This document shows, one piece after another, positions 8,319 to 63,520 of a DNA stretch of 64,000 nucleotides. This DNA is from an uncultured Gammaproteobacteria bacterium (GTDB lineage Bacteria > Patescibacteriota > Patescibacteriia > SG8-24). The notes below the pieces were generated by a model. It worked only from the letters and a program-made list of their open reading frames with translations. It was not told where the DNA came from and made no database searches. The number at the start of each line of letters is the position of its first letter. Within the stretch, counting starts at the first letter, position 1. The position numbers were made by a program, and so were the translations under genes. The stretch covers positions 95,168-159,167 of the forward strand of contig CAZAOV010000001.1 in assembly GCA_964486995.1 (NCBI GenBank), in the 5' to 3' direction.

Positions 8319-10682
8319 TTATTTTTTACCTTTCGTTAGCACTAAAGGGAGAACCTCATCCACGGTTTTCACAAAAACAAATTCCATGCTGTCCCGTACC
8401 TCCTGCGGCACGTCAGCCAAATCCCTGCGATTGTCGTGTGGCATTATTACTCGCTTGATGCCAGCGCGATGCGCGGCCAGACACTTCTCTTTGACGCCGC
8501 CGATTTCAAGCACTCGACCGCGCAACGTTATCTCCCCGGTCATGGCAACACTCCGGCTTAATTTGTTGCCGCCCAGTAACGACACCAGCGCCACGGCCAT
8601 AGCTACACCCGCGGACGGTCCGTCTTTAGGTATGGCTCCGGCCGGAACATGAATATGAAAATCAGTTTTCTGGTGAAAGTCCGCATTCACCCCCAGCTTG
8701 TCGGCCACCGACCGCACATAAGAAAATGCGGCTTGCGCGGATTCCTGCATAACCTCTCCAAGTTGCCCAGTCAAAATCAGTTTCCCCTTGCCCGGCATCT
8801 GGGTCGCTTCAATTTGCAGAATTTCACCGCCGGTCTGCGTCCACGCCAGGCCAGTCACCACACCGACCTCGTCGCGTGCACCGGCTTCCATGTGAGTAAA
8901 CTTGCGCGGACCCAAGAAATTCTCAACGTCTTTAGCACGAATATCTTTTCGCGGTTTAGTGCCCTCAACTACTTTCTTGGCGATCTTTCGGCATACCGAT
9001 GATATTTCTCGCTCCAGATTGCGCACGCCCGCCTCACGCGTATAATGACGAATCAACTCATGCAGTGCGGCTGGCTGGAACTTGCAGCCACGTCGCCCTA
9101 ACCCGTTGTTCCTAATCGCTTTCGGTATCAGATACCCCTTTGCAATCTCTGTCTTCTCACGCTCGGTGTAGCCGGGAAATTCAATCACCTCCATGCGATC
9201 CCGAAGGGCCGGCGGAATTGTGTCGAGCACGTTAGCCGTAGTAATGAACAGCACGTCAGACAAATCAAACGGCACTTCCAGATAATGATCAGAAAACTCA
9301 TGATTCTGTTCCGGATCAAGCGCCTCCAGTAACGCAGCTGACGGATCACCACGAAAATCAGAACCAATCTTATCGATTTCGTCCAGCATAAATACCGGAT
9401 TACAGGTACCGACATTAGCGATACCCTGGATAATTCGACCGGGCAACGCACCAACATATGTCCGCCGATGCCCGCGAATCTCAGCTTCGTCATGCACGCC
9501 ACCCAAGCTGACACGATGAAACTTCCGCCCGAGCGCCCGGGCGATAGACTTGCCGATAGAAGTCTTGCCGGTTCCGGGCGGCCCGGCAAAACACATTATC
9601 GACCCACGCATCTTGCCGACCAATTTTTGCACCGCCAAATACTCCAGCACGCGATCCTTGGGCTTATCCAAACCAAAATGATCCTCATCCAGAATTTTTT
9701 TGGCCTGCTTCACATCTATCTCGGATTCGTCTTTCTTGTCCCACGGCAAATCCGTCAGCCATTCAAGATATGTCCGAACGTACGACGCTTCCGGACTGAA
9801 CGACGGCATGGCTTTCAACCGATGATATTCTTTTATCGCCTTAGCCTTTGCGTCCTCCGGCATGTTGGCGGATTCAATACGTTCGCTCAAATCGTCATCG
9901 TCACTTTTGCCGTTGATGCCTTCCAGCTCTTTTTCAATCGATTTCAACTGCTCACGCAGAAACACTTCGCGCTGCATTTTGTCGAGCTCCTTACCGGTTT
10001 CGGCCTGAATCTGCGATGCCATCTGCAAAATTTTTACCTGTCGGCCTAAAGCCTGGCTGACGCGGTCCAATTTCTCTTCTGCGGTATTTGATTCGAGCAC
10101 GCCCTGTTTTTCCTTGACCGACATCTCCACGTTCGCGGCAATCATGTCGCCGAGCAGCCACGGCTCACTCATATTCAAAATCACCAACAGCACATCAAAC
10201 GACACGTTCGCCCCCATGTTCACCACTCGCCTAAACTGATTCAGCACGCTGTACATCAACGCTTCTATTCGTTCGGTCTTCTGATCGTTCGGCTCAAAAA
10301 ATGGCTTAACTACAGCCTTAATATATGGTTTCTCCACTGCGACTGACGCTATCCGAACCCGCGCTAACCCCTCTACCAAAACACGAATCGTTCCATCGTC
10401 CTGCTTCACCAACTCACGCACTCGAGCCAACGTACAAACTTCGTACAGCTGATCGACGGTGGGTTCACTGGCCTCCGGATTCTTTTGCGCTGAAAGCGCG
10501 ATTACCCGACCGTGCTTCATTGCGTCGTCCAGCGCCTGCGTGGACTTTTCTCGCCGAACCACAATCGGCATGGCCACGCGCGGAAAAGCCACGGTGTCCC
10601 GAAGCGGAATTAACGGCACCTCTCGAGACTTGCGGTCCGAGAAATATTGTTCGGCAAATTCTTGGTTGTCTTTTTGAGCCAT
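8319..10682 (-). CDS. lon: ATP-dependent Lon protease (LonA).
   Basis: Lon N-domain, Walker A 'GPPGTGKTS', 'DEIDK', and the catalytic Ser region 'PKDGPSAGVAMAVALVS'. Confidence 0.95.
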   Translation of the reverse strand: MAQKDNQEFAEQYFSDRKSREVPLIPLRDTVAFPRVAMPIVVRREKSTQALDDAMKHGRVIALSAQKNPEASEPTVDQLYEVCTLARVRELVKQDDGTIRVLVEGLARVRIASVAVEKPYIKAVVKPFFEPNDQKTERIEALMYSVLNQFRRVVNMGANVSFDVLLVILNMSEPWLLGDMIAANVEMSVKEKQGVLESNTAEEKLDRVSQALGRQVKILQMASQIQAETGKELDKMQREVFLREQLKSIEKELEGINGKSDDDDLSERIESANMPEDAKAKAIKEYHRLKAMPSFSPEASYVRTYLEWLTDLPWDKKDESEIDVKQAKKILDEDHFGLDKPKDRVLEYLAVQKLVGKMRGSIMCFAGPPGTGKTSIGKSIARALGRKFHRVSLGGVHDEAEIRGHRRTYVGALPGRIIQGIANVGTCNPVFMLDEIDKIGSDFRGDPSAALLEALDPEQNHEFSDHYLEVPFDLSDVLFITTANVLDTIPPALRDRMEVIEFPGYTEREKTEIAKGYLIPKAIRNNGLGRRGCKFQPAALHELIRHYTREAGVRNLEREISSVCRKIAKKVVEGTKPRKDIRAKDVENFLGPRKFTHMEAGARDEVGVVTGLAWTQTGGEILQIEATQMPGKGKLILTGQLGEVMQESAQAAFSYVRSVADKLGVNADFHQKTDFHIHVPAGAIPKDGPSAGVAMAVALVSLLGGNKLSRSVAMTGEITLRGRVLEIGGVKEKCLAAHRAGIKRVIMPHDNRRDLADVPQEVRDSMEFVFVKTVDEVLPLVLTKGKK

Positions 10683-10819
10683 GTGTAATGGGTAGTAAGG
10701 GGTACAAAAGTGTAAGGGTGGAAAGGCGGCATGGCTGGCGAATGCAGATGCAAGTCCTGTCGTCCTTCTGCCCCTATACTCCTATGCTTCTATAATCTTC
10801 GCCTCGGCGTTTCTACCCG

Positions 10820-12441: not shown

Positions 12442-12710
12442 CTAGGGCAAAATGTAACATTATTTTGAGATGGATTCAAGAGCGGTATATGCGTAATTGC
12501 AGCGATAAGTACGGCTGCGGAAGGCTGGAAAGATGTAGAGGTAAGGCAATATGGGGGCATGAAGCAGAAGAGCGGCGAAGCTCGCGGATGCGCATTTGCG
12601 CTTATCGCCCTTTTGCCCTTATGCTCTTTCACTCTTGTGCCCCTTTATATCATGCCTTTTAGCGAACCCGGCGCCGACTGCCCTATTTAAGGCAACTATC
12701 TCCAAAAATA

Positions 12711-32291: not shown

Positions 32292-32496
32292 TGGGATCAG
32301 TCCGTGTACAGATGGGTCTATTATTTTTTGCCGCGCACCTGTGCAAAAAACGTCAAACTTATTTTGAAGTGAGTCTGACGTTTTTTAAGGGCGAGCACCC
32401 GCAAAAAGGTGACGGCGGCGAGCAAGGCGGCCCACTTGGAAATGCGCGAAAAAGGCGATGATTTAGATAAATAACGTGACGTCAATCTTAAAAGAA

Positions 32497-34692: not shown

Positions 34693-34861
34693 CCTATGCG
34701 TAAGGCAATGATGCGCTTACTAAGTTAAAAACCAGTCTTTTTGTACCTTATCAAGCTCACCAATTTAGTCTAAGGACTTATCCCCAAAATAGGTGCCAGG
34801 GACCTATTTTGGGGATATCTCCAGATTTAAAAAACCGGACAACTGTCCGATTTTAATGTAC

Positions 34862-45664: not shown

Positions 45665-45726
45665 ATTTAAAAAATCGTCAGACAGTTTTTCGCTCTAAGA
45701 CGAAAAACTGTCTGACGATTTTTTAA
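45665..45726. terminator. Long perfect hairpin (~22-bp arms, AAAAATCGTCAGACAGTTTTTCG / CGAAAAACTGTCTGACGATTTTTT). Bidirectional terminator.
   Basis: Inverted repeat with flanking A/T runs, between convergent genes. Confidence 0.75.
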
Positions 45727-45744
45727 ACGGTCGTCAACATCTGA

Positions 45745-49528: not shown

Positions 49529-50197
49529 CTATCTCATTACTCGATGAAGAAACAGTTTCCAGGCTGTCTTCAGTCCTTCGTAAAATCCCTGCCCCTTAGA
49601 CAACGAGTATGCCGAGTAGTCCGGTCGAATCAGTACCTCTTCCAACATCAAATCATTGCGGTTAATTTCACCGATAATCTCTGACGAAACTTCCATTCGA
49701 TTTGACCGCAAGTCTAGCTGTAGCGCCGCACCGCGCGTAAAGCCGCGTAATCCGGACTGACTGTCGTTGACCCATTTACCAAACAGCAAAAACGTTTGCA
49801 GATTCGCGAGCCAGTTCGCCAGACGTCGCGTTTTCGGCATCAAATGACGGTCAAGATATCTGGTGCCGATGGTCACTTCAGCACTGCCCCGCCTCAGCGG
49901 CTCAACCATCCGCGCTATATCCTCCGCCCGATGCTGGTCGTCTGCATCAAAAGTCACAATGAAATCCGCGCCCGAACGTAACGCCGCCAACAAACCGGTA
50001 CCAATTGCGGCACCCAGCCCACGATTAATTACATGCGTCACGACCCTGACTCCAGCGGCCACCGCCAACTCGCCAGTCCGGTCGGTTGAACCGTCATTGA
50101 CCACTATAATTTCATCAACCAAACCCGAAAGTGAGCGGAGAACTCCGCTCACCGTGCTTTCTTCGTTGTAGGCCGGTACGACGGCGACTACTTTCAT
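49529..50197 (-). CDS. Glycosyltransferase family 2 (polyprenyl-phosphate sugar synthase type, DPM1/GtrB-like). Start at the internal 'MKVVAVVPAYNEE'.
   Basis: 'AVVPAYNEE...VVNDGSTDRT' and 'DADDQH' motifs. The longer ORF would overlap the UXS gene. Confidence 0.8.
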   Translation of the reverse strand: MKVVAVVPAYNEESTVSGVLRSLSGLVDEIIVVNDGSTDRTGELAVAAGVRVVTHVINRGLGAAIGTGLLAALRSGADFIVTFDADDQHRAEDIARMVEPLRRGSAEVTIGTRYLDRHLMPKTRRLANWLANLQTFLLFGKWVNDSQSGLRGFTRGAALQLDLRSNRMEVSSEIIGEINRNDLMLEEVLIRPDYSAYSLSKGQGFYEGLKTAWKLFLHRVMR

Positions 50198-50270
50198 ATG
50201 GCATTTGGGTAATAAGGAGGTAAAACTTACGTTGACGGAAAATTCCCTGTTGCTTTGCCGCCTCGCTCCT

Positions 50271-51290
50271 CTAGTCAAATGATGGGCGTAAAATATCCTT
50301 ATGCGCCACGGTATATTCAACGGTCTTCTTTAATCCCTGCTCCAAAGTCACTAACGGAATCCAACCAGTTTCCTTAATCTTGCTCAGATCGGGCAGACCC
50401 AAATCTCGCATGAACGGCAATCGGTCGCGAAATACAATCTGCGATTTGGAGCCGGTCATTTCGAGAATCTTACTAGCTACATCAACCAGCTTAATATCAT
50501 AGTCGCTGCCCATATTCATCGGTCCCGGATCCTCCGGTAGTTCCATCAGACGTATTATTGCATCCACCACATCCGTGACGAAAATCAACGAAGAACGGAA
50601 ATTATCATCACCGTATATCACCAGCTCGCGGCCATCTATCGCATCGAGCACAAAATCGGGAACCATGTGTCCATCAGCCAGCGTCTGGCGCGGTCCGTAA
50701 GTGCGAAAGATGCGTCCAATTCTGGTGTCTAGTCCGTGTGCATCACGATACGTATTGCACATGGTTTCCGCAAACCGCTTGCCTTCGTCATAGCAACCGC
50801 GCGGTGTCATGTGGTCGAAACGGCCAAACTCGTCTTCAGAAAAAAGATGCCCATCCTCTGGACGAGTGCCGTAAATTACCGAAGTGGAAGCCTGAAAAAA
50901 CTTAGCCTTATACTTCAGCGCCAAGTCCAGCACATTTCGCATACCCACTGAATTGGCCATCAGCGTATCGTGCTTATACTCATCGAACTTTTTTGGTGAA
51001 GTCGGACAGGCTAAATGATACACTTCCTGCACGCCCTGAAATTTCAGCTTGAACCTTTCCAATTCGGGATATATCTCCAAATCGAGCGGCTCAGAAATAT
51101 TAGCATTGATAAATTCAAAATCCGGATTCTTGAACAGTTGATTGATGTTAGCCTGCTGGGAAGTAATGAAATTATCGACGCAAATAACCTTGTTTTCTTT
51201 AAGCAGGCGTTCGCAAAGAAACGATCCGATGAATCCAGCACCACCGGTAACTAAGACGTTTTTCTTCTCAAATATTGGCTTGTCTTCCAT
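50271..51290 (-). CDS. UDP-glucuronate decarboxylase / UDP-xylose synthase-like SDR.
   Basis: 'VLVTGGAGFIGSFLCERLL', YxxxK, and UXS-like length. Confidence 0.75.
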   Translation of the reverse strand: MEDKPIFEKKNVLVTGGAGFIGSFLCERLLKENKVICVDNFITSQQANINQLFKNPDFEFINANISEPLDLEIYPELERFKLKFQGVQEVYHLACPTSPKKFDEYKHDTLMANSVGMRNVLDLALKYKAKFFQASTSVIYGTRPEDGHLFSEDEFGRFDHMTPRGCYDEGKRFAETMCNTYRDAHGLDTRIGRIFRTYGPRQTLADGHMVPDFVLDAIDGRELVIYGDDNFRSSLIFVTDVVDAIIRLMELPEDPGPMNMGSDYDIKLVDVASKILEMTGSKSQIVFRDRLPFMRDLGLPDLSKIKETGWIPLVTLEQGLKKTVEYTVAHKDILRPSFD

Positions 51291-51485
51291 AAATGTGGTG
51301 TCTTATTTCTAAGCGGTGGCTCAGACACGCTGAATGCTGCTATTCGCACGCATTACAGCATGTCTTCGCGTGGGTTAGGTATTGGCGTCCGTGCCAAGTT
51401 TTAGTTCGCTGACAACAATAATTTCTGTATGGGAATTATACGTCTTTAGGCTGGCAGAGGCAAGAAAAAGGCTTAAATATAAGAA

Positions 51486-51600
51486 AAAGTATAGATGTGT
51501 AGAGGTGTAGATGTTTAGGAGACCCACACACTTACGATAGACGCCTGATGCAAACGTGGAGGTCTGCCACACTTCTACACCTCTATACTTCTACACTATT
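51486..51600. repeat. ORF-less inverted pair of 3x 8-bp tandem-repeat arrays (GTATAGAT GTGTAGAG GTGTAGAT ... CTTCTACA CCTCTATA CTTCTACA) around a 58-bp spacer. It belongs to the same repeat family that brackets the 4HB gene at 58922-59406.
   Basis: Read directly. The arms are able to form a long imperfect stem. Confidence 0.6.
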
Positions 51601-52024
51601 CTCTAAATGCCCACTTCTTATAGAGCGTAAAATTCCACAAAATGACGCATCCGGTCGCAAACACCTTGGCGATGATGTCATAGACCCCCAGATTAATTAG
51701 CGTGTACATCAGCAAAGCATTCAGACCCAGGCTGGCGAAAGTCACCATCAAATATTTTGGCATGCGCCCAGCCATGCCGTCGCGTTTTTTCCGAAAAGTC
51801 CAAAAATTGTTCAGCGTAAAACTAGAAACCATACCGCAACAGTATGACACCACAGCGGCCAGCACCAGACGTTCACCCCAGAATTCAAAAATGCGTGTCA
51901 TGAAAATGTACACGCTGAAATCTACCAGGGTATTCACCGTTCCGACGATACAGAACTTAATGAGTTGGCGAGCAGTGGCATGGCGATATGCCAATACCCT
52001 CAAATTGCTGATGAACTTTACCAT
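51596..52024 (-). CDS. GtrA-family polysaccharide-synthesis membrane protein.
   Basis: 4-TM protein, 'FCIVGTVNTLVDFSVYIFM' GtrA signature. Confidence 0.7.
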   Translation of the reverse strand: MVKFISNLRVLAYRHATARQLIKFCIVGTVNTLVDFSVYIFMTRIFEFWGERLVLAAVVSYCCGMVSSFTLNNFWTFRKKRDGMAGRMPKYLMVTFASLGLNALLMYTLINLGVYDIIAKVFATGCVILWNFTLYKKWAFRE

Positions 52025-52030
52025 GACCGA

Positions 52031-54115
52031 TTAATGTATGAATCGAGCTCTGACTCCGCCACGATGATGCATTCCGTAGGCTTGAAAAGTAATCTCGGGC
52101 CGAGCAGATGAGGCGGTCACGGTTACCGCAGGTGCCTTGCCTTCTAGTGATCCCCAAACCGTGCGGTGAGGCGCGGTTGTGTTGGGAGTTTCTAGGCCAA
52201 CTCCGCTGGCGGTCATCTCCGGTACCGCACCACCATCGCCTAAATAATCTCCCTGTCCGTTGTAGACCGCGGTCGTCGGTTCTCCTTTCGGGTCATGACC
52301 CTGCACAACCAGCTCAACCGTGCCGTCACCGTCCAAGTCCTCCATCATCACCATCATTCCACGATCATAGTCGATACCGAAGGGCATAATAGTAAATAGG
52401 TGTGTGCCGTGTTTATCGAAGATACGCACTTCGGGTTTACCGCGTCCCGGTGATACGGCAATCTCTGTTTCGCCATCGTTATTGAAATCACCGGCAGCAA
52501 CGTCTGTCCCCCCGCGATAGCCTTCCTCAAAGGCGAAAAATCCGCCGAGCACCTGACCTCGCTTATCAAACACCCGAATATGCGGACCGCCACCTGGACC
52601 GGCTCCGGTTATAATTTCATCAATGCCATCGTCATCCAAATCGCTGACATCAATCTCGACCCCACCCCGGAAATCGCTATTATAGGCGAAAAATCCGCCG
52701 ATCGGTCGTGTATTTATGTCAAAAATTCTAACGTGCGGACCGCCGCCGGACAGTGCACCAGCTATAATGCTGTCACGATGAGTGCCGTCAAAGTTACCGA
52801 TAGCAAGCGAAACACCGCCCATAAACGATTCGGGGAACGCATTAAAGCTCCGAACAAACAGGCCGTATTCGGTAAAAATTCTTACTTCAGGAGCATGACC
52901 GGCGCCGGGACTAGTAACTACATAGCGACCGTAAGCTTCTTCTGGTGCCAACATTGCCGTAGCTTTCACCTGCTCTATGGGTTGCAGCTGCTGATCTTGC
53001 AGGACCTTTTTCACTGCCGCCGCGGCATCAATCCGACCACGTCCTAGACGACCAAAATAATCTTCGTTCAAAATGTCAATATTTTCCGAAGTCTCGGTTA
53101 AGATGTTCATCACCCTCTTAGGGGTTAATGCGCTATCGAGCGAAAACATCAACGACACCAGACCTGAAACCAGAGGAGCGGCCACGGAAGTCCCGCTGTA
53201 ATAACCACCATAGGCTTCAACAAAATCCATGCTCCCAGGAACAACGACCTGAGTGGAAATTATTCTTTCCCCCGGAGCGCTGATATCAATACAGGCGGCT
53301 CCGTAGTTAGAGAACTCGGCTTTCAAATCGTCTGCGTCGGTCGCCGCCACCCCGTAGACGTAATTTACGTTTGAATCGCGATCAAAACAAACCGGATAAA
53401 GCGGGTTGCGATCAAGATTATCCGCCTCGCCGTTATCCGGCGCATTGCCGGCTGCCGCCACCACAAATACGCCGCTGTCATAGGCACGACGAAGCGCATG
53501 GTTCAGCCGCGAGCTATAAGTCGAACCAACAAAGCTAAGATTAATGACTTTGGCTCCGTTATTGACTGCATAATCAACCGCACGCGCCACATCGTTTGGG
53601 TCTCCTACCCCATTTGAATCCAGCGCGCGTATCGGCATTATTGGCACTTGCCAGGCGACGCCCACGATACCAATCCGGTTATCGCCCTTAGCTGACGCCA
53701 GGCCAGCGCTAATTGTGCCGTGGTTCGCACCTAACAGTGAATAGTCACCGTAAGTATGCGGACTTGGGTCATTATCAGAATCAACGAAATCCCAGCCGAC
53801 GATGTCATCGACATATCCGTTGCCGTCGTTATCAACCCCGTCACCGGCGACCTCGTAGACGTTGCGCCAAATATTATCTTTTAAATCGGGATGATCCAAA
53901 TCAATGCCGCTGTCTATAATCGCAATCGGCACATTTTCCATGCCCAAACTGTACTGCCAAGCTTCCGGTGCTCCGATATGCGACAGATACCACTGCTGTT
54001 CAAAAAACTGGTCATCCGGAACACGCGCCGATGCAGCGCCCGGAAACCATAAATAGCTGGCCGTAAACAGCACCAGCATGATTAACATTGCTCGATTCAC
54101 TGGAGTTTGTTTCAT
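52031..54115 (-). CDS. Secreted subtilisin-like (S8) serine protease with a C-terminal FG-GAP/VCBS-like repeat domain. The signal peptide starts at 'MKQTPVNRAMLIMLVL'; the longer ORF runs to 54151.
   Basis: Asp 'AIIDSGID', His 'HGT', Ser 'GTSVAAP', then repeated 'D.D.DG..E' beta-propeller blades. Confidence 0.85.
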   Translation of the reverse strand: MKQTPVNRAMLIMLVLFTASYLWFPGAASARVPDDQFFEQQWYLSHIGAPEAWQYSLGMENVPIAIIDSGIDLDHPDLKDNIWRNVYEVAGDGVDNDGNGYVDDIVGWDFVDSDNDPSPHTYGDYSLLGANHGTISAGLASAKGDNRIGIVGVAWQVPIMPIRALDSNGVGDPNDVARAVDYAVNNGAKVINLSFVGSTYSSRLNHALRRAYDSGVFVVAAAGNAPDNGEADNLDRNPLYPVCFDRDSNVNYVYGVAATDADDLKAEFSNYGAACIDISAPGERIISTQVVVPGSMDFVEAYGGYYSGTSVAAPLVSGLVSLMFSLDSALTPKRVMNILTETSENIDILNEDYFGRLGRGRIDAAAAVKKVLQDQQLQPIEQVKATAMLAPEEAYGRYVVTSPGAGHAPEVRIFTEYGLFVRSFNAFPESFMGGVSLAIGNFDGTHRDSIIAGALSGGGPHVRIFDINTRPIGGFFAYNSDFRGGVEIDVSDLDDDGIDEIITGAGPGGGPHIRVFDKRGQVLGGFFAFEEGYRGGTDVAAGDFNNDGETEIAVSPGRGKPEVRIFDKHGTHLFTIMPFGIDYDRGMMVMMEDLDGDGTVELVVQGHDPKGEPTTAVYNGQGDYLGDGGAVPEMTASGVGLETPNTTAPHRTVWGSLEGKAPAVTVTASSARPEITFQAYGMHHRGGVRARFIH

Positions 54116-54657: not shown

Positions 54658-57531
54658 CTAAGAACCCTTGACATTCAGGGAGCTCTTCACATTGACCACG
54701 CCATCAGCAGCGGTTCCGGGCAGCGGTTCATATGTGCCGGACGGTATATCAGTCCAGAGAAAGTCACCGTTTGTCATCAACTCCACTTTCAGGGAGTAAT
54801 CTCTGTCTTGCGCGAATGCGGTGGTATAGAGCTCAAGCTGATAATCAAATGAAGCACCAGCCGGAATGATAATTTCTGAACCTTCGTCAATGTCATATTC
54901 GATGATTCCGTAATCGCTCGATTGTGAGTCGTAACCGGACGGCGTGGAGTCTCGGCTGCTACCGGATGCTATATAGTATCTGATGCTGACACTGCTGTCC
55001 TCACCGAACGTATCCTTGGTGCCGTTAGGATAGACGCGTTTTAGATTTACCACGCCGTCATCGTCACGCGCATCGCCGTTTCGATCCGCCCAAAGTTCCA
55101 GCGCATCATTATCGGAACCTTCCTTTCCGGCGTCTGATGGGTCTAGCATGAACGACAGTTTCCGCACCCGCACCATACCAGTTTCATCCGCCGCCAAACT
55201 GAATCTCAGCACCTGTATCTCGGAGCCGCGATAGACATCACCCGATGGGGAATACTCGGACTTGCTGGCGTACAATTTGGAATACCTGACGATGATTGCA
55301 CTAGAGCGATTCTCCTTTAGCTCAAACCCGGGCAAATTCAAATCCGTAGCCTCGAAATCATCGAGCGTAGAAACAGACGAGAACACCAACGGACCCATGA
55401 TGTTTAGATCAACACCCAACTCCTCACCATATACAACGCCGCCAATCTTGGGATAGATATCACCGTATAGACGCACCGAAGTTTCTGTATCCCGGGGCAG
55501 CCAGGCCGCCAAGCCGGAAAAGGTCGCCAGACCGCCGAGCATTTCCCCGTCCACAGACACAACCTCTCCAGCCTGATTATCATATTCAAGTCGCAAGTTA
55601 CCCAAAGAATCAGCAGTTGAACTCGACTGCCTGAAGGTGATTATTTTGAGCAGGTAATCATCAAACTGCGGCTCGAATTTAATGTCGCCGAGATGCACCT
55701 CTTGCCCGGCAATTTGGTTGCCGCTATCTCCATACCAACCTAAATCCATCTCGCCTTTTTCTCGAATGGTGAGACGGCCGATGGCGTTCACACCATGATT
55801 GGGATTCTTGCCGCTAGCCGGTACTTGATCGCCCGTCTCATCAGTAACTATGACGTTTAGTGCGGCATCTTCAATATCGAAAGCAACCATATTTGGACTG
55901 CCTTCTAGATTAAGGCTGTGGCTGATATCGCCGTGCACGATGACTTGCTGTGAACCACCGGCCGGAATATACAAATTCATTCCGGTGAACGTGACCACGC
56001 CGTTTACGTCTATAGTTTCCGGACCGGCGATCGTGCTTCCATCAGGATTACGCAGAGTCACCTGATCTGACACGAAAGTTTCGCGCACCAGAGTTTCGGT
56101 GCCGTTGTCCGCGTCGCTACCGGGCAGAAAGCCGCCGGAATCGCCCTCATCGATATAACCCTGCATCGTCATCGATTGAACGACGTTTGGCGCCGATGTC
56201 GTGGCATGAAGGGTGAAGTCGGTTATCGGAACATTGAGCGCACCCTTGACGTAAGTCTGGTTGCTGTATGCGGCTGTGGCATCCACCTCTAGGCTGTCGG
56301 CCAGCGTGGTAAGCGCTGGGCCAATTATGTCGGAGGCGGGCAGGAACGGTGTTAGCTGTCCCTGATCATCGATGAATTGAATGCCGGAATTGAGTAGCTT
56401 GACCTGATATCCTTCCGAATCCGGCAGCAGATGGTTCAGTCGCGCCTTTAGAAACAGCACCACATCTTCGCCGGCCGGAATCAACAAATTACCAGTATAA
56501 TTAAGTGTCTGCACTTGGTCAAGATTGACATCAAGCGCGATTTCTTGACGCCCCAGAACCTCGAAACCTGAACCATTAACGAAAGTCAGATGCGAAAAAT
56601 TCTTCTGAGCGTTATTGCCGTAGACTAATCCACCTGCATCATCGTCAACTTCACCCTCGTCGCGGGAGTCGTCTGTGGTCGCCTGAAGCACCGCGGTAAG
56701 ACGAGTCAGTCGAACATCTCGCCCGGCAGTTATATGCAGCTCCAGCAAAGTGGCGTTACTGGCCACGGCGATGAACGTTGACGGCGGCGTCTGAACTCGC
56801 AGCTGCGGCGGCACAGCAACCGAAACCACATTGCGCTCAGCCGTATCGGTTATCGCAGCTTCGGGTGCGGTAATTGATTCGGCTTCCGGATAGGTAGATA
56901 AATCCAGTTCGGTTGTCACCAGATGCTGTTCCTGAATTCTCAATTGATCCAATAGGTCTTCGGTGGAAATTCTGCGTTTGGTGCCATTGTCTATGTAAAA
57001 AAATGCGTCGTCGCTAGAGCGCCGCACTACGGTGCCAGTAGGCCAAACCGGCGCCGCTAACGGCGAACCGATCGAATAATTTATGAAATAAGTATCCGGA
57101 ACGTCATCAATAATTTGATTCCAGCTCTCGCCGTATAAATCATTGGCAATTGATTCACTGCCGATTGCGCGCAGCACTCCACCGGGCTCCACTGCATACA
57201 CGGTCGGATCAGAAGTTATTTTTATTAGGCGAGTGCCGGGGCGGTATGTGATATTACCGCCGATCATGTGTGCCGCCATTTCGGCTTCGCTCACCTCGCG
57301 CACGCCAGAAAAATCTTCGTACCATGTGTGATAAACCTTTGAGGACGGAAACACGTAACGCTTGCCGTCATCGGCAACATAATAGACTGCGGCATCGTGC
57401 TGAGTGTCGGGATTATTGTCGCTGACCAGCTTGATTAAGTCACCCGGAACCGTGGCGGCAAAAACGTCATCCGGCGAAGACACGAAGCACAACGCCAAGG
57501 CGATTGCGATAAAAATTAAGTATTTTTTCAT
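54658..57531 (-). CDS. Large secreted protein (~957 aa from 'MKKYLIFIAIALAL'; the ORF extends to 57582). The N-terminal ~125-aa conserved domain is shared with the two neighbouring paralogues, followed by a long beta-rich region.
   Basis: Signal peptide plus the domain 'DDGKRYVFP..KVYHTWY.DFSGV..V...E.A...IGGN.TYRPG.R..KI.SDP.VYAV..GG.LR...' shared with 57619-58830 and 59996-63520. Confidence 0.7.
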   Translation of the reverse strand: MKKYLIFIAIALALCFVSSPDDVFAATVPGDLIKLVSDNNPDTQHDAAVYYVADDGKRYVFPSSKVYHTWYEDFSGVREVSEAEMAAHMIGGNITYRPGTRLIKITSDPTVYAVEPGGVLRAIGSESIANDLYGESWNQIIDDVPDTYFINYSIGSPLAAPVWPTGTVVRRSSDDAFFYIDNGTKRRISTEDLLDQLRIQEQHLVTTELDLSTYPEAESITAPEAAITDTAERNVVSVAVPPQLRVQTPPSTFIAVASNATLLELHITAGRDVRLTRLTAVLQATTDDSRDEGEVDDDAGGLVYGNNAQKNFSHLTFVNGSGFEVLGRQEIALDVNLDQVQTLNYTGNLLIPAGEDVVLFLKARLNHLLPDSEGYQVKLLNSGIQFIDDQGQLTPFLPASDIIGPALTTLADSLEVDATAAYSNQTYVKGALNVPITDFTLHATTSAPNVVQSMTMQGYIDEGDSGGFLPGSDADNGTETLVRETFVSDQVTLRNPDGSTIAGPETIDVNGVVTFTGMNLYIPAGGSQQVIVHGDISHSLNLEGSPNMVAFDIEDAALNVIVTDETGDQVPASGKNPNHGVNAIGRLTIREKGEMDLGWYGDSGNQIAGQEVHLGDIKFEPQFDDYLLKIITFRQSSSTADSLGNLRLEYDNQAGEVVSVDGEMLGGLATFSGLAAWLPRDTETSVRLYGDIYPKIGGVVYGEELGVDLNIMGPLVFSSVSTLDDFEATDLNLPGFELKENRSSAIIVRYSKLYASKSEYSPSGDVYRGSEIQVLRFSLAADETGMVRVRKLSFMLDPSDAGKEGSDNDALELWADRNGDARDDDGVVNLKRVYPNGTKDTFGEDSSVSIRYYIASGSSRDSTPSGYDSQSSDYGIIEYDIDEGSEIIIPAGASFDYQLELYTTAFAQDRDYSLKVELMTNGDFLWTDIPSGTYEPLPGTAADGVVNVKSSLNVKGS

Positions 57532-57618: not shown

Positions 57619-58830
57619 CTACCCCACAGGCTTCCCTACCGTGTAATTCACGAAGAACGGGTCTGGGATGTCGTCAATCATCTGATTCCAATTTTCACCA
57701 TACAGCCGCTCTGCCGTATCCTCGTCCGGCACCCATCGCAGTACGCCGTCCGCATCTACCGCAAACACTTCTGGACTGGACTCGATTTTCACCATTCTGA
57801 CACCCGGACGATAAGTGACGTTGCCGCCAATGGGAATCTGCGCCATTAGCTCCTTGCTGATTTCAATTACGCCAGCGAAAGAATCGTACCAAGTGTCGTG
57901 CGTTTTTCGGTTTGGAAAAACATATCGCTTGCCGTCAGTTCCGCAATAGTACAGCGTGGAGCTATTCGGTGTCTTGATTCGGCTATTGGGATGGCAGGTG
58001 GTCGTACCCACGGGCAATTCAGCGGCCAATAGACCCTTATCTACCCCAATGGTTTCCGCTGCTGCGATAATTTCTGCTGGCTCATAGATATCAACTGGCT
58101 TCGGTTCCGGCGGCGGCTCCAAGCCCCGTATCGTAAAATCACCGGTCACGGCCATAGCCACAATTCGACCGGCGTTAATGCCCTCGATCTTTAACCGCAC
58201 GACATCCGTGGTGATTACTTCCGGCACGGCCCAGTTGTAGAAACCGGTATTAAACAACTCTCCGGCAAACGGCTCGGCAAAAGTGGTACCACCATCGACC
58301 GACAGGCGCAGTTGAAGATAAGATGGCGCACGACCGATGGTGCTCCACAAAATCTGATGCGTGTCTCCCATCGACAGTTCGGTATCGGCGCTCGGTGAAG
58401 AGATGACGATTTGCGAAGTGTCCTCGGGCTCAGCCTCGTCGGTTTCGCAAAACAGCGAAGAGACGACGATATTTACGGTCTTCGGACCGGTGATAATGAG
58501 TTGGTTTTCCCGACTAGGTGTGACATTGCATACCTGCAGGCTGGCGTTATTCTCCAAGCGGCGTGGATTCGGGCCAAGGGACCGGAATTCAAACGCCTCA
58601 TTCTCGGGAACGGTCACGAATATCGAGTCGCCTTCATGATAGATATCCTCATAAACCGAACCGGCTTTGATCACCAAGGAAAAGCTATCCGTGGCATAAG
58701 AGGTATCCTCGGTGGCGGTTGTATAAACCGGAACCGATTCGATGTATAGCGTGGGCACGGCTTCCTCGGCTAGGGCAGTCATCGGAGCCAGCAAACCAGC
58801 CAGTGTCAGGAGAGTGATTAGTTTTTTCAT
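57619..58830 (-). CDS. Secreted 403-aa paralogue in which the conserved ~125-aa domain is C-terminal, preceded by Ig-like/beta-rich modules.
   Basis: Signal peptide 'MKKLITLLTLAGLLAPMTALA' and a C-terminal 'TDGKRYVFPNRKTHDTWYDSFAGV...IGGNVTYRPGVRMVKIESSPEVFAV'. Confidence 0.7.
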   Translation of the reverse strand: MKKLITLLTLAGLLAPMTALAEEAVPTLYIESVPVYTTATEDTSYATDSFSLVIKAGSVYEDIYHEGDSIFVTVPENEAFEFRSLGPNPRRLENNASLQVCNVTPSRENQLIITGPKTVNIVVSSLFCETDEAEPEDTSQIVISSPSADTELSMGDTHQILWSTIGRAPSYLQLRLSVDGGTTFAEPFAGELFNTGFYNWAVPEVITTDVVRLKIEGINAGRIVAMAVTGDFTIRGLEPPPEPKPVDIYEPAEIIAAAETIGVDKGLLAAELPVGTTTCHPNSRIKTPNSSTLYYCGTDGKRYVFPNRKTHDTWYDSFAGVIEISKELMAQIPIGGNVTYRPGVRMVKIESSPEVFAVDADGVLRWVPDEDTAERLYGENWNQMIDDIPDPFFVNYTVGKPVG

Positions 58831-58921
58831 ATATTAGATAGTAGGTGTGTTGTGATTTGAGGTAATTGTACACAATTTTTGTAGAAGCATATAAGCGTGT
58901 AAACGACTTTTTCATTATTTA

Positions 58922-58947
58922 TGTGTAGAAGTATAGAAGTATAGTAG
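58922..58947. repeat. Left 8-bp tandem-repeat array (TGTGTAGAA GTATAGAA GTATAGTA) flanking the 4HB gene. Inverted partner at 59383-59406.
   Basis: Read directly. Same repeat family as 51486-51600. Confidence 0.6.
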
Positions 58948-59010
58948 GTTGTTTTGGCTAAATATTTCCGTTTGACAACATCGGGACACACTGATAAGCA
59001 ATGTCTTAAT

Positions 59011-59376
59011 ATGAATGTCAGAACTCCATTTACTGAGCTACGAATATGGAAACAAGCGCACAAACTTGCGTTAGAAATTTATAGTATTTCAAACAAATTT
59101 CCGGTCGAGGAAAAATTTGGACTGCAATCCCAAATTAGACGCTCTGTTTCCTCTGTTTCGGCCAATATTGCTGAAGCATCCGGCAGAGAAACCAGGAAAG
59201 ATATTGCTAGATTTCTAACAATATCGAGAGGGTCCGTTCAGGAAACCATCAGCCACTGCTTACTTGCTAAAGACTTGGGAATTATTGATGAAAGCGAGGC
59301 TAATCTGATTATCAATAAATACAATATCCTGGCTGCAGGAATACACAAGTATAAATATGTGGTAATGAATAGGTAG
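59011..59376 (+). CDS. Four-helix-bundle protein of the '23S rRNA intervening-sequence protein' / DGR-Avd family (PF05635/TIGR02436-like). Start at the internal 'MNVRTPFTELRIW'; the ORF opens at 58954.
   Basis: 'W..AH.LALEIY.I...FP.EEKFGL.SQIRRS..SV.ANIAEA.GR....D..RFL.IS.GS..E' matches the family. This is the only plus-strand gene in a minus-strand neighbourhood. Confidence 0.75.
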   Translation: MNVRTPFTELRIWKQAHKLALEIYSISNKFPVEEKFGLQSQIRRSVSSVSANIAEASGRETRKDIARFLTISRGSVQETISHCLLAKDLGIIDESEANLIINKYNILAAGIHKYKYVVMNR

Positions 59377-59382
59377 CCACCC

Positions 59383-59406
59383 TCCTACACTTCTATACTT
59401 CTATAC
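59383..59406. repeat. Right inverted 8-bp tandem-repeat array (CTACACTT CTATACTT CTATACCC).
   Basis: Inverted relative to 58922-58947. Confidence 0.6.
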
Positions 59407-59410
59407 CCCT

Positions 59411-59442
59411 AAACAAAAAACCACCCGTAGGGTGGTTTTTTG
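59411..59442 (+). terminator. Rho-independent terminator CCACCC-gta-GGGTGG-TTTTTT after the 4HB gene.
   Basis: Hairpin with a 6-nt T-run and an A-run 5'. Confidence 0.75.
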
Positions 59443-59995
59443 TCGTCTCGCGAATGAGCGGGACGTTATTGAGAATTCTTCGTCAGATCGAATCGGCTCG
59501 GAATAATGTCGGACGGTCTCGGTTGCGGCGGCTGGCATTGGCAGCCGTGCCACAAAGTGCAGTTCGCACCGACCGACCCTCCCTAAGAGCGCATGGGAAG
59601 AACTATTGGATTCACGCGAAGGCGACATTCCTGTCTGGTGGCACATATATATAAACGGCCTACACATGACGGATGGCGCTGGTTCGCCGTAAACTAACGG
59701 ACTTCCGGAGCGGGGTGGGATGGCTGATGGTAACTAGCTGAACCCGGCGCACAGAGCCTGACGCTCGCCGGACACAACTTCGACTATCTTCAATTATTAG
59801 GAACGCGAATCGACATGGTTTCGAACTTTCGCCGGAGAAGGTGCGCCTTTTTCGCGCGACCCGTCCGCTATCCCCTCGGCAGTCGAGGTGGAGCCGAACT
59901 ATTTTGGCTCGACCCCACTCGACTTACCCCAGGTGAGGGCGGCTTTTAGTTTCCAAGGGAGCCGCTAACCCAGCAAAGTTTCAATTCAGAGTGTC

Positions 59996-62900
59996 CTAGT
60001 TGGACATGGTCTGAGAGTCGGTCGGGAGGACGTTGACGTAGAAGCCATTGGCCCAGTCGGCAGAACCATCATCCAGGTCATCGTGGGCCAACAGTGAAAT
60101 GTCGGACCAGACGAAGCGGGAACCGGTGTCGTCGACCAGCAACGAGTAACCGTTAGCAACGCCGTCGTAATCGAGGTCACCAGTGTCAGCGGCATCGTCG
60201 CCGAGCAGTTTGGTGCTCAGGGAATCGGTGCCTGTGCTGGCATTAGCGACATCCAGTATCAGGTCGTAGGTGACCTGCGAACCGGCGGAAATGACCTCTT
60301 CCTGGTCAAAGACCACAGCGAAGGTACATTCCTCGCCGTCCTCGCAGTTTGCGTCAGTATCAGTGCTGTACACAGTCACGTTACCATCGATGTAGTCGCC
60401 ACCGACGCGGCGGACGGAGGACTTGGTACCGACCGGGTCGACATTGCCGTTGCTCTGGTTCTGGACCTCGAATACGAGACCCTTCAGCGCGACTGCACCG
60501 GCCGCATCGGCGGATACGGTGAAGCGGGAAGCGGTCACGTCACCGGCGGTCAACAGAGAGCCCGGCAGGCTGACGAGAGCCACGCTCGGCTTGCTCTTGC
60601 GACTGACCTTGACGTAGCCGTCAATCTGGTTACTAGGCAGGCCAGCGCCGTTGTTCAGGTTGTCACCATCCAGAACGGTGTTGGAGCCGGAGCCTGTGCC
60701 GCGGGCCTCAAAGTTGGTCTCGACCATGGTCACGGTAGCTTCCATTCCGGTGTCAGCACCAGAGGCGCCAACGCTGTTCAGGTTACCCTTGACGGTCATG
60801 GTCTTGTGGCTGTCCTTCGGCACGACGAAGGTCATGCTGGAGAAGTCAGCGACACCGCCAGCAGTGACGCCCACCGGACCGCCGACTAGCGTCGAGCCGT
60901 CCCATAGGGACAGGCTGCCTACGGCTTCACCGTTGACCACAGTAAAGACGATGTCCTCAACGTTGATCTCTTCGTTCTCGGCGGTGAACTTGTACTTGGC
61001 CAAGACGGCGTTAGAGGTGCCACCGACGACGATACCAGCCTCGGTATCAGCGTCTTCCGGAGCGCGGACAACGTTCAGGTTGCCTGCCAGAGCGACGTTG
61101 TGGTTTGGACCATCAGCCGGGAGACCGACAATCTGTGTGGCCGCAAGCGGCTCACCTTCGGCATCTTCGACGTCACCGTCGAGGTCGCCACCATCAATGT
61201 CGAATTCGAGGTTGGCAACGAGACCGCCGAGCGAGCTGCGCAGGTCAACCTTCAGCGTTACGCCGACGGTCTGACCGGCCGGAACCAAGAGGTTCAGATT
61301 GTCAAAGACAAACTGCTCATTGGTGTTCGGACTCTCGAGTGAACCGAGCTGGGTCGAGCCGTTCCACAAGCTGCCGCTCATAACGACAGTGTCGAGAACT
61401 ACTGATGAATCATCACCAGTGATCGTGATGGTATCGACATACAGGTCGGACGCGTCGTTGGCGGTCAGACCGAAGCCGAATACCTCAACACCGGTACTAC
61501 CTTGGATGAAGGTCTGGGCGACCGGCGTGGAACCTGTAGCAACAGTCAGCTCCGGAGCCACTACTCCATGGTCGTTACCCGCCAGGCGAGTGGCCGGAAC
61601 AAAGTCGAGATCCTCGTCTAGGTCTTCACCGTTGTCGAGATTCCTGACGTCGCCGGTGTTGAATAGGTCATCTTCAGCATCATCACCCCAAGTCACCATA
61701 ACGGTGTCACTGACGATACCAGCGGCATCCTCGATGTCAGCACGTACTGACAAGGTGCGGCTGGAACCAGCACCGATGTTATAGGACTCAGTGAAGTCAA
61801 AGTCCTGCTCGACGACACCGTTGTAGGTGTTTGCCGGACCAGCGATGGTGACACCAGTAGCAGTGTCAACAATCTTCAGGTCAGTGATCACATCATTGAC
61901 ATTAGAACCACCCACTATGGTCACGGTCAGCCCAGTGTTGCGAACCTCAAGGTTTGCCTGGGCGGACAGGGTGATGTTGAGAAGCTCAACGTCACTGGCA
62001 CCAGTAGCAATGTCGCGCGAAGCCGGGCCGTTCAGAACGGCGGTCAGCTTACCAGCCTCGATACCGACGTCACCTGGAGTCCAGCTATCAAGTGTGGCCA
62101 TGCCATAGCCATAGCTCTGACCGACACACAGCAAGTCTGCAACCTGGTCGAGGTCTAATCTGACGACATCGTTAGTATCAACAGCCGCGCTTACGTCAGC
62201 ATAGAGGTCGAAAGTTCGGGGTGAACCATCTTCCAACGAGAACGGAGCGGGCAAAATAAATACCGCCAAATCATCATTCAGACCAGCGACAGTAGCCAGA
62301 GTATCACCACTCTGCTTCAGAACGAAGTTGCTCAGGTCACCAGCGTTAACGCCGCCGACTTCGACAGCGATGCGGGTAAAGTGAGCGTCCTCGTTAGTAG
62401 CCTCAAGCTGGAACTCGCCAATCTTGGCGCCCATCTCACCGGCCTTGATGTCAGCAACTGCGCCTCCGTCTGTGATTTCACACTGACCGGCATTAACACC
62501 AGCAAAGGTGAAGGACGGACCAGTCACCGGAGTGCCGGCGGCGCTCACAGTACCGGAAGTCAGACCAACGATTTGGAACGCGTTAACGTTGCCAGCGTCG
62601 GCTAAATCACCATCAACATCGAGTGGGTTGTCAACATCAACAGCGAGCCAGAAGGACTCGGTAGCGCCCGGGCCAACAGAGACACCCAAGTTTCCGAAGG
62701 TGGTCTCCTGGCTGGAACCACTCAGGGTGCGGCCATTGCTCAGGCGATCGTTGCCATGATAGACGTACACGGCATCGAAGTCATCGACTTCACCCGGACC
62801 AGTGCGGCGCACGGTCAGAGAGTCGAGCGGAAGGGCGGCGGAGCCACCATTCATGACGTCGAATTTCAGTACGTTGACGCCGGTCGCACCCTTCGGAAGG

Positions 62901-63520
62901 GTACCGCCAGACGGCATCATGGAAGACGGACCGACGGTCAAGCTACCGGAACCGGAGCTAGCCGAGAGGCCCTTATCCTCGTTAATAGTGGCCGAGGCGG
63001 CCATAACAGCGGCTGGATCATAGTCGCCGCAGTCAGCGATATCCGCACCGATGGTGTAGTTCACAAAGAACGCATCCGGTACGTCATCGATCTTGGTGTT
63101 CCAGTCCGCACCATAAAGGCAAGTAGCGGTGGCTTCGTCGGCAACCCAGCGGAGGGTGCCATCCATGCCGACTGCATAGACCTTAGGATCGGTCTGGATC
63201 TTAACCATTCTGACACCAGGACGATAGGTGACGTTGCCGCCAATCGGCATCGCCGCCAGCTCGGCGTCAGTGATTGTCTGGACGGCGGAAAAATCCGCGT
63301 ACCAGGTATTGTAAGTTGGTTGATTCGGAAAGACGTAGCGCTTATCGTCCGCGCCGACGTAGTAAACCGCCGGCAGGGATCCGCGCACGAGGTCACCGGA
63401 AGCCGCAGCGTTCGCCGTAAGTGGCGTAACGAGCGCAGCCAAACCGATGGACCAAGCGATCGTTGCTGCAACAACAGCAACGGTGAACGCTCTCCTGCTC
63501 ATTCGTAAAACGTTATGCAT
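59996..63520 (-). CDS. Giant (1174 aa) secreted surface protein. After the signal peptide it carries the conserved ~125-aa domain, then >1000 aa of Thr/Ser/Gly/Asp/Val-rich, Cys-poor beta-rich sequence.
   Basis: Signal peptide 'MSRRAFTVAVVAATIAWSIGLAALVTPLTANA'. Domain 'ADDKRYVFPNQPTYNTWYADFSAV...IGGNVTYRPGVRMVKIQTDPKVYAV'. 50-80-nt stretches share about 85% nucleotide identity with the paralogues. Confidence 0.75.
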   Translation of the reverse strand: MHNVLRMSRRAFTVAVVAATIAWSIGLAALVTPLTANAAASGDLVRGSLPAVYYVGADDKRYVFPNQPTYNTWYADFSAVQTITDAELAAMPIGGNVTYRPGVRMVKIQTDPKVYAVGMDGTLRWVADEATATCLYGADWNTKIDDVPDAFFVNYTIGADIADCGDYDPAAVMAASATINEDKGLSASSGSGSLTVGPSSMMPSGGTLPKGATGVNVLKFDVMNGGSAALPLDSLTVRRTGPGEVDDFDAVYVYHGNDRLSNGRTLSGSSQETTFGNLGVSVGPGATESFWLAVDVDNPLDVDGDLADAGNVNAFQIVGLTSGTVSAAGTPVTGPSFTFAGVNAGQCEITDGGAVADIKAGEMGAKIGEFQLEATNEDAHFTRIAVEVGGVNAGDLSNFVLKQSGDTLATVAGLNDDLAVFILPAPFSLEDGSPRTFDLYADVSAAVDTNDVVRLDLDQVADLLCVGQSYGYGMATLDSWTPGDVGIEAGKLTAVLNGPASRDIATGASDVELLNITLSAQANLEVRNTGLTVTIVGGSNVNDVITDLKIVDTATGVTIAGPANTYNGVVEQDFDFTESYNIGAGSSRTLSVRADIEDAAGIVSDTVMVTWGDDAEDDLFNTGDVRNLDNGEDLDEDLDFVPATRLAGNDHGVVAPELTVATGSTPVAQTFIQGSTGVEVFGFGLTANDASDLYVDTITITGDDSSVVLDTVVMSGSLWNGSTQLGSLESPNTNEQFVFDNLNLLVPAGQTVGVTLKVDLRSSLGGLVANLEFDIDGGDLDGDVEDAEGEPLAATQIVGLPADGPNHNVALAGNLNVVRAPEDADTEAGIVVGGTSNAVLAKYKFTAENEEINVEDIVFTVVNGEAVGSLSLWDGSTLVGGPVGVTAGGVADFSSMTFVVPKDSHKTMTVKGNLNSVGASGADTGMEATVTMVETNFEARGTGSGSNTVLDGDNLNNGAGLPSNQIDGYVKVSRKSKPSVALVSLPGSLLTAGDVTASRFTVSADAAGAVALKGLVFEVQNQSNGNVDPVGTKSSVRRVGGDYIDGNVTVYSTDTDANCEDGEECTFAVVFDQEEVISAGSQVTYDLILDVANASTGTDSLSTKLLGDDAADTGDLDYDGVANGYSLLVDDTGSRFVWSDISLLAHDDLDDGSADWANGFYVNVLPTDSQTMSN

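Follow-up and report, generated by a model that had tools for sequence, protein, structure and literature searches.

The nature and origin of rRNA intervening sequences (IVSs), and the role of their open reading frames (ORFs), have been debated since about 1990. In Coxiella burnetii, the 23S rRNA IVS is 428 nt long with 36% GC against 42.5% for the genome, carries two or three tandem heptamers (GACAGAT) in its 5′ arm, holds an S23p ORF of the protein family considered here, and is cut by RNase III within its stem (PMC4990558). Insertions in rRNA genes of candidate phyla radiation (CPR) bacteria are likewise reported to contain this domain (bioRxiv 10.1101/2024.02.27.582315). Here we analyze a 64-kb stretch of contig CAZAOV010000001.1 from an uncultured CPR bacterium (hereafter the window), in which a gene for a four-helix-bundle (4HB) protein is bracketed by inverted arrays of 8-nt units. 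The relatives of its CTP synthase place the organism in the Patescibacteria, close to Uhrbacteria. The gene family, the rRNA IVS, and the Coxiella heptamers are already known; the feature in the window is an IVS-type cassette outside rRNA, which we consider probably to be an intact selfish element whose arms form an RNase III-type stem.

The cassette resembles the ORF-bearing 23S rRNA IVSs of Coxiella and Leptospira in size (∼484 nt, against 428 nt in Coxiella), and shares with the Coxiella IVS the protein family and a GC content below that of the host (about 35–40% in a genome of ∼50%). Its terminal inverted repeats, like those of rRNA IVSs, pair into a long enclosing stem, of ∼24 bp here and ∼28 bp in Coxiella, built from three octamers instead of two or three heptamers (unit period 8 vs 7). 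The settings differ: rather than lying within a 16S or 23S rRNA helix, the cassette is flanked by protein genes, on the + strand between the minus-strand genes 57619–58830 and 59996–63520. RNase III cleavage is proven for the Coxiella IVS and presumed by analogy for the cassette, and the three-frame stops carried by the arms of the cassette would have no meaning inside rRNA. Rfam searches of the whole window at the gathering threshold returned no family, rRNA included, and those on 58800–60100 at E up to 10 gave no credible structured RNA; tRNAs were likewise absent. A structured RNA in or beside the element was rejected on these scans.

The two arms (Table 1) are 86% complementary over 29 nt, with about three units per arm of the form TRTAGRRG (period 8 in Tandem Repeats Finder, TRF). 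Their complementarity score of 19 compares with a maximum of 11 among 403 control pairs of the same spacing, and in the minimum-free-energy (MFE) fold of the cassette RNA they are paired over 24 bp (dG −139.9 kcal/mol, z −5.5). Read inward, the 5′ arm has TAG at 58926, 58934, and 58942, which stops all three frames, and the 3′ arm, read inward on the minus strand, likewise has TAG in three frames. A first, sequence-only reading of this DNA had described a plus-strand gene between surface-protein genes, bracketed by inverted 3 × 8-nt arrays, and the arms confirm that description. The span it assigned to the element (58920–59445) was too long, since the hairpin at 59413–59443 within it is a host terminator outside the cassette.

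Table 1. Positions of the cassette, its surroundings, and the ORF-less copies in the window.
Feature	Positions	Strand	Remarks
Degenerate ORF-less copy	10690–10800	−	5′ array TATAGAAG CATAGGAG TATAGGGG; in spacer upstream of Lon gene; fold z −1.4
ORF-less hairpin, same 8-nt unit family	51485–51600	−	Starts 1 nt past GtrA stop; co-directional operon
AT-rich spacer, 92 bp	58831–58922	.	Separates the divergent 403-aa gene and the 5′ arm
5′ arm	58923–58951	+	About three tandem 8-nt units (TGTAGAAG TATAGAAG TATAGTAG G...); pairs with 59378–59406
4HB protein gene	59011–59376	+	PF05635/TIGR02436 by profile match, Xcc0516-like; 121 aa from ATG
3′ arm	59378–59406	+	Inverted copy of the 8-nt array; begins 1 nt past the stop codon
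Host hairpin	59413–59443	.	Perfect 14-bp stem bordered by runs of A and T
Host non-coding 3′ region of large surface-protein gene (assigned from sequence)	59446–59995	−	Fold z −3.5 on the minus strand

Judged by profile and sequence matches, the gene product is a clear 4HB protein of the PF05635/TIGR02436 family, similar to Xcc0516. It matches PF05635 with 117.3 bits (E 4e-34, cut-off 33.8), TIGR02436 “four helix bundle protein” with 109.7 bits (cut-off 24), and Protein Data Bank (PDB) entry 2GSC (Xcc0516) at E 8e-15. The sequence-only reading had named a profile search as the check that could overturn its family call, and the ORF falls within PF05635. The public annotation (P0001) uses an alternative TTG start at 58954, giving 140 aa; homologue N-termini lead us to favour the ATG. 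An AlphaFold2 (AF2) model of the monomer (pLDDT 96) has helices at residues 11–27, 32–57, 62–88, and 94–120, and Foldseek matches it to Xcc0516 (TM-score 0.89–0.96, 29% identity), BT_0352 (2RLD, TM ∼0.8), and Avd (4DWL, TM 0.80, identity just 6%). The four-helix fold is thus common to the window protein and to Xcc0516 and BT_0352 of the “S23 ribosomal protein” family, of which Xcc0516 is a homopentamer of four-helix bundles according to the passage that cites it in PMC4990558. All residues invariant in a 39-member family alignment are kept (10/10). Pfam profiles and fold comparison revealed no nuclease, recombinase, or polymerase fold or motif, and nothing of an HUH or tyrosine transposase: Pfam gave only PF05635 and a sub-threshold bAvd match, and the fold is a plain four-helix bundle. 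Among PADLOC defence models, 0 families matched the protein at E up to 0.01.

We surveyed 80 loci carrying related genes, with two metagenomic relatives added, across many phyla (Omnitrophota, Bacteroidota, Acidobacteriota, Planctomycetota, Chloroflexota, Proteobacteria, and several CPR lineages). To score the arms, the 150 nt before each gene were compared with the 150 nt after it and the best ungapped complementarity was taken, with the 403 random same-spacing control pairs drawn from the surveyed loci and a threshold of >11. It was exceeded in 53 of the 80 relatives and in none of the 403 controls. Among these 53, the tandem period of the arms is 7 in 39 and 8 in 7; period 8 is clade-consistent, as the two closest relatives of the window protein (48–52% identity) both have 8-nt units. 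Arms sit close to the gene: the median distance is 27 nt from the end of the 5′ arm to the start codon, and 3 nt from the stop codon to the beginning of the 3′ arm. The median element length is 457 nt, and the GC content of the gene is below that of its locus in 62 of 64 cases. Unit sequence varies locus by locus, and pairing between the upstream arm of one locus and the downstream arm of another is at background; the locus-specific pairing of arms amounts to covariation across the family. When whole cassette RNAs were folded, the arms were paired in 43 of 53 MFE structures (median 21 bp).

None of the surveyed relatives lies in an rRNA gene. This bears on one option of the sequence-only reading, an IVS-type selfish element that has left the rRNA. 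The first part of that option is supported by protein family, paired arms, size, and low GC, and the element does lie outside rRNA, but the proposed direction is probably backwards, because the surveyed relatives all lie outside rRNA with the same kind of arms. Cassettes outside rRNA appear to be the norm, with the rRNA IVS as a special case.

By a crude ORF call, 38 of 45 loci have both adjacent genes running in the direction of the 4HB gene; a median of 10.5 nt separates the upstream stop codon from the 5′ arm, and the next gene mostly starts within ∼35 nt of the 3′ arm. The typical cassette is wedged into the intercistronic spacer of co-directional genes, and the genomic contexts are unrelated. 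Stops in all three frames were found in 18 of 53 5′ arms and 11 of 53 3′ arms read inward, compared with 3 and 5 of 53, respectively, read outward; the expectation for 5′ arms is 4.2 in composition-matched shuffles and 9.4 in permutations of unit positions that preserve the tandem structure (P 2.5e-4). Three-frame stops follow automatically when the unit contains a stop triplet and its length is not divisible by three. In 46 of 53 elements, it is the C-poor strand of the arms that runs 5′ to 3′ toward the inside. A “G-rich 5′ arm” as a mark of gene orientation was dropped, as this polarity is invariant under reverse-complementing the element.

Several surveyed cassettes show unusual arrays or junctions. 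Expanded arrays occur in L043 (∼18 heptamers, 9852–9990) and L009 (>100 nt of GGTTGA hexamers within 9822–10431), and L075 has several inverted array sets (434–1127 and 9853–10409); cassette arrays evidently expand and contract. In L001 (4960–5000), the recA stop codon lies within the first units of the 5′ array (…AAGTGACAAAG…), and the array itself ends the upstream gene. At the 5′ junction of the second cassette of L029 (11795–11822), the upstream gene ends in codons whose reverse complement comes next (TTTGGACGAC GTA GTCGTCCAAA), and the resulting hairpin, which overlaps the upstream stop codon, may be a relic of how the element was inserted. 4HB genes on cyanobacterial plasmids are flanked by arrays of GTCAGGA ×4 (pNPUN02) and CTCTGCC ×6 (pCC7120alpha). 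In the latter (L084, Nostoc PCC 7120 plasmid alpha, 2820–3420), the 3′ array of CTCTGCC ×6 is kept and the end of a transposase gene lies on the 5′ side, the 5′ arm having been removed by insertion of an insertion sequence (IS).

The unit family of the cassette recurs in the window without an ORF. Matches to the unit pattern elsewhere in the window number 5, against 0 expected, and fall at 51485–51600 and near 10.7 kb. The hairpin at 51485–51600 has 45-nt arms that are 78% complementary (dG −51.7, z −7.4), and is missing at the GtrA site of the syntenic relative L088. More generally, arrays like the arm of the resident cassette occur at 1.4 per 100 kb elsewhere in the same locus and at 0.07 per 100 kb in others. 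In the Acidobacteria L008 and L019, whose flanks are 76–83% identical and whose 4HB proteins are 57% identical, the cassette site and an ORF-less hairpin site 5.5 kb away are each orthologous between the two; at both sites, one genome uses GCNATGA units and the other GCTCTTG. Of two Planctomycetaceae contigs that are 93% identical (L029 and L031), one holds a full cassette at an intercistronic site where the other has a 100-bp ORF-less hairpin made of different units. The unit family is genome-specific and common to cassette arms and ORF-less hairpins, and this genome-wide sharing, together with parallel switching of units, suggests a process or factor that acts on DNA or on all copies at once.

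A census of inverted tandem arrays over 1.27 Mb showed that every pair spaced by 350–700 nt encloses a 4HB-family ORF, except in the repeat-rich loci L016, L034, and L075, where arrays of neighbouring elements pair; as the census loci were chosen for carrying a 4HB gene, this exclusive association is biased. The census also recovered a divergent 4HB-family ORF missed by the initial search. The differences among units cluster at certain positions of the unit (z 10.8), a pattern that duplication history could yield as well. Two weaker hairpins in the window, near 10.7 kb (z −1.4) and at 12530–12665 (z −2.5), were judged too weak to count as family members. The latter is a G-rich/C-rich imperfect hairpin of ∼130 nt on the + strand, upstream of a T2SSE ATPase gene, with a TRF period of 8 (TTTGCCCT ×4.2), and could belong to the same hairpin family as a divergent member built from different units.

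These features invite comparison with known repeat classes. As in repetitive extragenic palindromic (REP) or REPIN systems with RAYT, a gene lies between inverted short repeats and is accompanied by dispersed ORF-less hairpin doublets of the same genome-specific repeat. RAYT is a recognizable HUH transposase, whereas the 4HB protein has no catalytic motif; REPs are single palindromes, whereas the arms here are tandem 7/8-nt arrays; and mobility is putative here. Set beside miniature inverted-repeat transposable elements (MITEs) and ISs, the copies in the window have a unit family in common, with no direct repeat or target-site duplication seen flanking the window cassette and no transposase found near it. 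The Correia/NEMIS elements of Neisseria are small inverted-repeat elements co-transcribed with their neighbours, with RNA hairpins that are processed by RNase III. Their hairpins resemble ORF-less copies such as 51485–51600, but they have conserved terminal inverted repeats (TIRs) and a TA target duplication, and are not known to have tandem-unit arms or an associated 4HB gene. Cyanobacterial short tandemly repeated repetitive (STRR) sequences are tandem heptanucleotide repeats in intergenic DNA, like the heptamer arrays flanking the plasmid 4HB copies on pNPUN02 and pCC7120alpha. In the searchable literature we found nothing on a link between STRR and the 4HB gene family, which is no proof that it is undescribed, and nothing on non-rRNA flanking arrays, operon position, three-frame stops, or ORF-less companions, which is absence of evidence only.

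Syntenic relatives of the window keep the large surface-protein gene, its 3′ region, and the terminator, and lack the 4HB gene and the TRTAGRRG arrays. Behind the large gene, two Uhrbacteria contigs (L089 and L090) are homologous to the window only as far as ∼59407, the outer edge of the 3′ arm. Contigs of the closest syntenic relatives (L087 and L088) end just at the cassette site, and their last 104 nt, when aligned, gave no clear empty site. In the near-identical L089 and L090, the same intergenic section that holds the cassette in the window differs by a ∼580-bp insertion (L090 7331–7911 vs L089 ∼7912–7972), which contains a 98-aa GIY-YIG ORF and has a ∼61-bp repeat at its borders. Small selfish ORFs appear to use this spacer as a landing pad.

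Beyond the cassette, 59446–59995 is colinear and weakly homologous with the spacer behind the orthologous large gene in L089 and L090, with conserved blocks TATTTATGTGCCACC and GTCCCGCTCATTYGCGAGACG (shared with L089, 7140–7740), and the terminator stands at the same position in L089 with a different stem sequence (compensated stem changes). The colinear spacer and the conserved terminator therefore identify this region, at the level of sequence comparison, as the conserved 3′ non-coding region of the host gene, neither part of the cassette nor a template repeat (TR). The sequence-only reading had noted it as a GC-rich ORF-free island beside the gene; it is indeed free of ORFs (4–7 stops in every frame, codon periodicity absent), but its GC content of 55.8% is not above that of the adjacent gene and it is not part of the element. 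A pseudogene was ruled out by the missing codon periodicity and the stops in every frame, and a TR by the lack of a partner in self-BLAST or an A-tolerant scan of the window. The region is conserved over ∼550 nt without an Rfam match, and may be a long structured 3′ untranslated region (UTR) or a 3′-derived small RNA (sRNA).

The hairpin at 59413–59443 is a bidirectional intrinsic terminator of the host that ends the 3′ region of gene 59996–63520, and the cassette abuts it. Long, nearly perfect palindromes between A/T runs at 2025–2073, 32345–32386, 34774–34822, and 45666–45727 are also bidirectional intrinsic terminators, unrelated to the 8-nt unit family. The three surface proteins, taken as giant paralogues in the sequence-only reading, have in common a domain of ∼105 aa (YYV..DGKRYVFPN...TWY..F..V...GGNVTYRPG..MVKI; 58–66% nt identity among 57064–57390, 57635–57956, and 63048–63370), but no similarity beyond it. 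Two of the proteins carry this domain at their N-terminus and the 403-aa protein at its C-terminus, and it occurs also in the relatives L087–L090; Pfam gave no match in any of the three. Elsewhere in the window, an ORF at 2879–5914 (1011 aa, no Pfam match) contains internal repeats (3171–3829 vs 4551–5287, 62–66% identity). A 3.1-kb Logan contig from run SRR7048221 (L086) is 100% identical to 50061–53164; the organism of the window is also present in that public run.

Our preferred explanation, by analogy with Coxiella, is that the arms would pair in any transcript carrying the cassette and form a stem of ∼24 bp closing off the ORF, which RNase III would cut, so that the cassette RNA is excised or insulated from host RNA. 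A ribosome entering from either side would be halted in every frame by the stop triplets of the arms, and stem and stops together could let the cassette be tolerated in or beside translated operons at little cost, nearly neutrally. The element would be selfish and horizontally acquired, and would belong to a genome-specific repeat family that also has ORF-less hairpins in the window. Several observations weigh against this explanation. The window copy is atypical, with a divergent upstream and a convergent downstream gene; the 92-bp spacer before the 5′ arm must hold the promoter(s), and no convincing + strand promoter was found in it, just a weak minus-strand consensus match. Three-frame stops are held by only about a third of arms. 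G·U pairs are not in excess over A·C mismatches on the sense strand (37 vs 48, not significant), and selection on RNA pairing as such is therefore undemonstrated. An RNA stem alone leaves unexplained both the genome-specific unit family shared with ORF-less hairpins and the invariant core unit positions, and the Coxiella S23p protein was not detected in vivo (PMC4990558).

A rival explanation is a mobile repeat family operating at the DNA level, like REP/REPIN with RAYT. The inverted arrays would then be recognition or recombination sites, as single-stranded DNA (ssDNA) or cruciform hairpins, and a 4HB pentamer would bind the tandem units and maintain or disperse the master cassette and the ORF-less hairpins, the RNA stem being incidental. 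We rate this account as less likely than the selfish RNA-stem cassette, though a serious candidate, and it partly overlaps our preferred explanation instead of excluding it. It fits the unit matches at 51485–51600 and near 10.7 kb, the excess of same-locus arrays, the parallel unit families at the orthologous sites of L008 and L019, the cassette and ORF-less hairpin at one site in L029 and L031, the 4HB-family ORFs enclosed by array pairs (repeat-rich loci apart), the concentration of unit variation by position, and the lack of a G·U bias in the arm mismatches. It also fits the Avd pentamer, which contacts an RNA stem-loop with all five protomers via the same residues (bioRxiv 10.1101/2023.10.23.563531). 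A stem made of tandem units would fit a homopentamer, which makes the 4HB protein a candidate for a partner that acts on the repeats in trans, in a putative RAYT-like role. Against this stand a protein without nuclease, recombinase, or polymerase fold or motif, whose most conserved segment is nearly invariant family-wide while the arm units differ completely; the absence of a visible target-site duplication at the window cassette; the presence of different unit families within one genome (L004, L029, and L066); and the selection of loci for a 4HB gene. That the gene is instead an ordinary resident of the host, with the hairpin as a private regulatory or stabilizing structure (e.g. autoregulation via its own mRNA stem), is unlikely. 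The intact ORF with all family-invariant residues, the arms hugging it closely, and the ability of an Avd-type pentamer to bind a stem-loop would suit such a gene, but they are set against the GC content below that of the host in 62 of 64 loci, absence of the gene from syntenic relatives, the polymorphism of presence, absence, and replacement at one site (L029/L031), the existence of ORF-less copies, the unrelated genomic contexts, and the same architecture inside rRNA genes (PMC4990558; CPR rRNA insertions, bioRxiv 10.1101/2024.02.27.582315).

The sequence-only reading had also offered a link to diversity-generating retroelements (DGRs), either as the remnant of one or with a trans-acting reverse transcriptase (RT) elsewhere. 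On that view, the protein would be an Avd for an RT that diversifies the surface proteins beside it. PF05635-like proteins are frequent neighbours of DGR RTs (PMC10053308), large surface proteins adjoin the 4HB gene, and Avd of the Bordetella phage BPP-1 DGR (4DWL, 8UB7), a pentameric barrel, has a similar fold (TM about 0.8). We nevertheless regard this reading as very improbable. The 23S-rRNA-IVS side of the original “Avd/23S-rRNA-IVS family” label is borne out by the PF05635 match (117 bits), but the Avd side is not, since the protein scores 21 bits with the Avd equivalog NF033474 (cut-off 80) and 17.3 bits with PF22296 (bAvd, cut-off 40), and is only 6% identical to Avd. As had been noted, there is no RT ORF in the window: no ORF in the 64 kb, nor in 83 related 4HB loci covered with flanks of up to 10 kb, carries the motif pair [LIV]GxxxSQ...YxDD. 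The proposed search for a TR and variable repeat (VR) pair allowing A mismatches also came back empty, with no 60-mer of 58800–60000 matching elsewhere in the window with ≤6 non-A mismatches. Self-BLAST of the window found no A-biased repeat, only the paralogous ∼105-aa domain that links the surface genes; Pfam found no known DGR target domain in the surface proteins, and 59446–59995 is conserved host 3′ DNA. With no RT or TR/VR pair in the window and failed Avd models, the DGR readings are therefore unsupported: the element is neither Avd nor part of a DGR.

A PF05635 match alone should not count as evidence of a DGR in annotation, and the interest of the locus rests on the family survey, not on a DGR link. 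For this CPR genome, the finding means a small selfish element rather than a diversification system for surface proteins. If our preferred explanation is true, the ORF-bearing IVS would be one landing site of a commoner cassette that lives mostly between operon genes, and the design of that cassette would be near-harmless, with a stem for the RNase III of the host and three-frame stops against incoming ribosomes. More tentatively, PF05635 proteins may be partners of an undescribed, multi-phylum class of hairpin repeats, in which 7/8-nt units of each genome's own build both the arms of master cassettes and ORF-less hairpins lodged after operon stop codons, with rRNA IVSs, and possibly STRR, as members that landed in particular places. 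The homopentamer might then read one unit per protomer, as Avd does its stem-loop, and so drive maintenance, concerted evolution, or spread of the repeats. The genome-specific units shared with ORF-less hairpins provide a testable hypothesis of function for the thousands of “four helix bundle protein” genes annotated without one.

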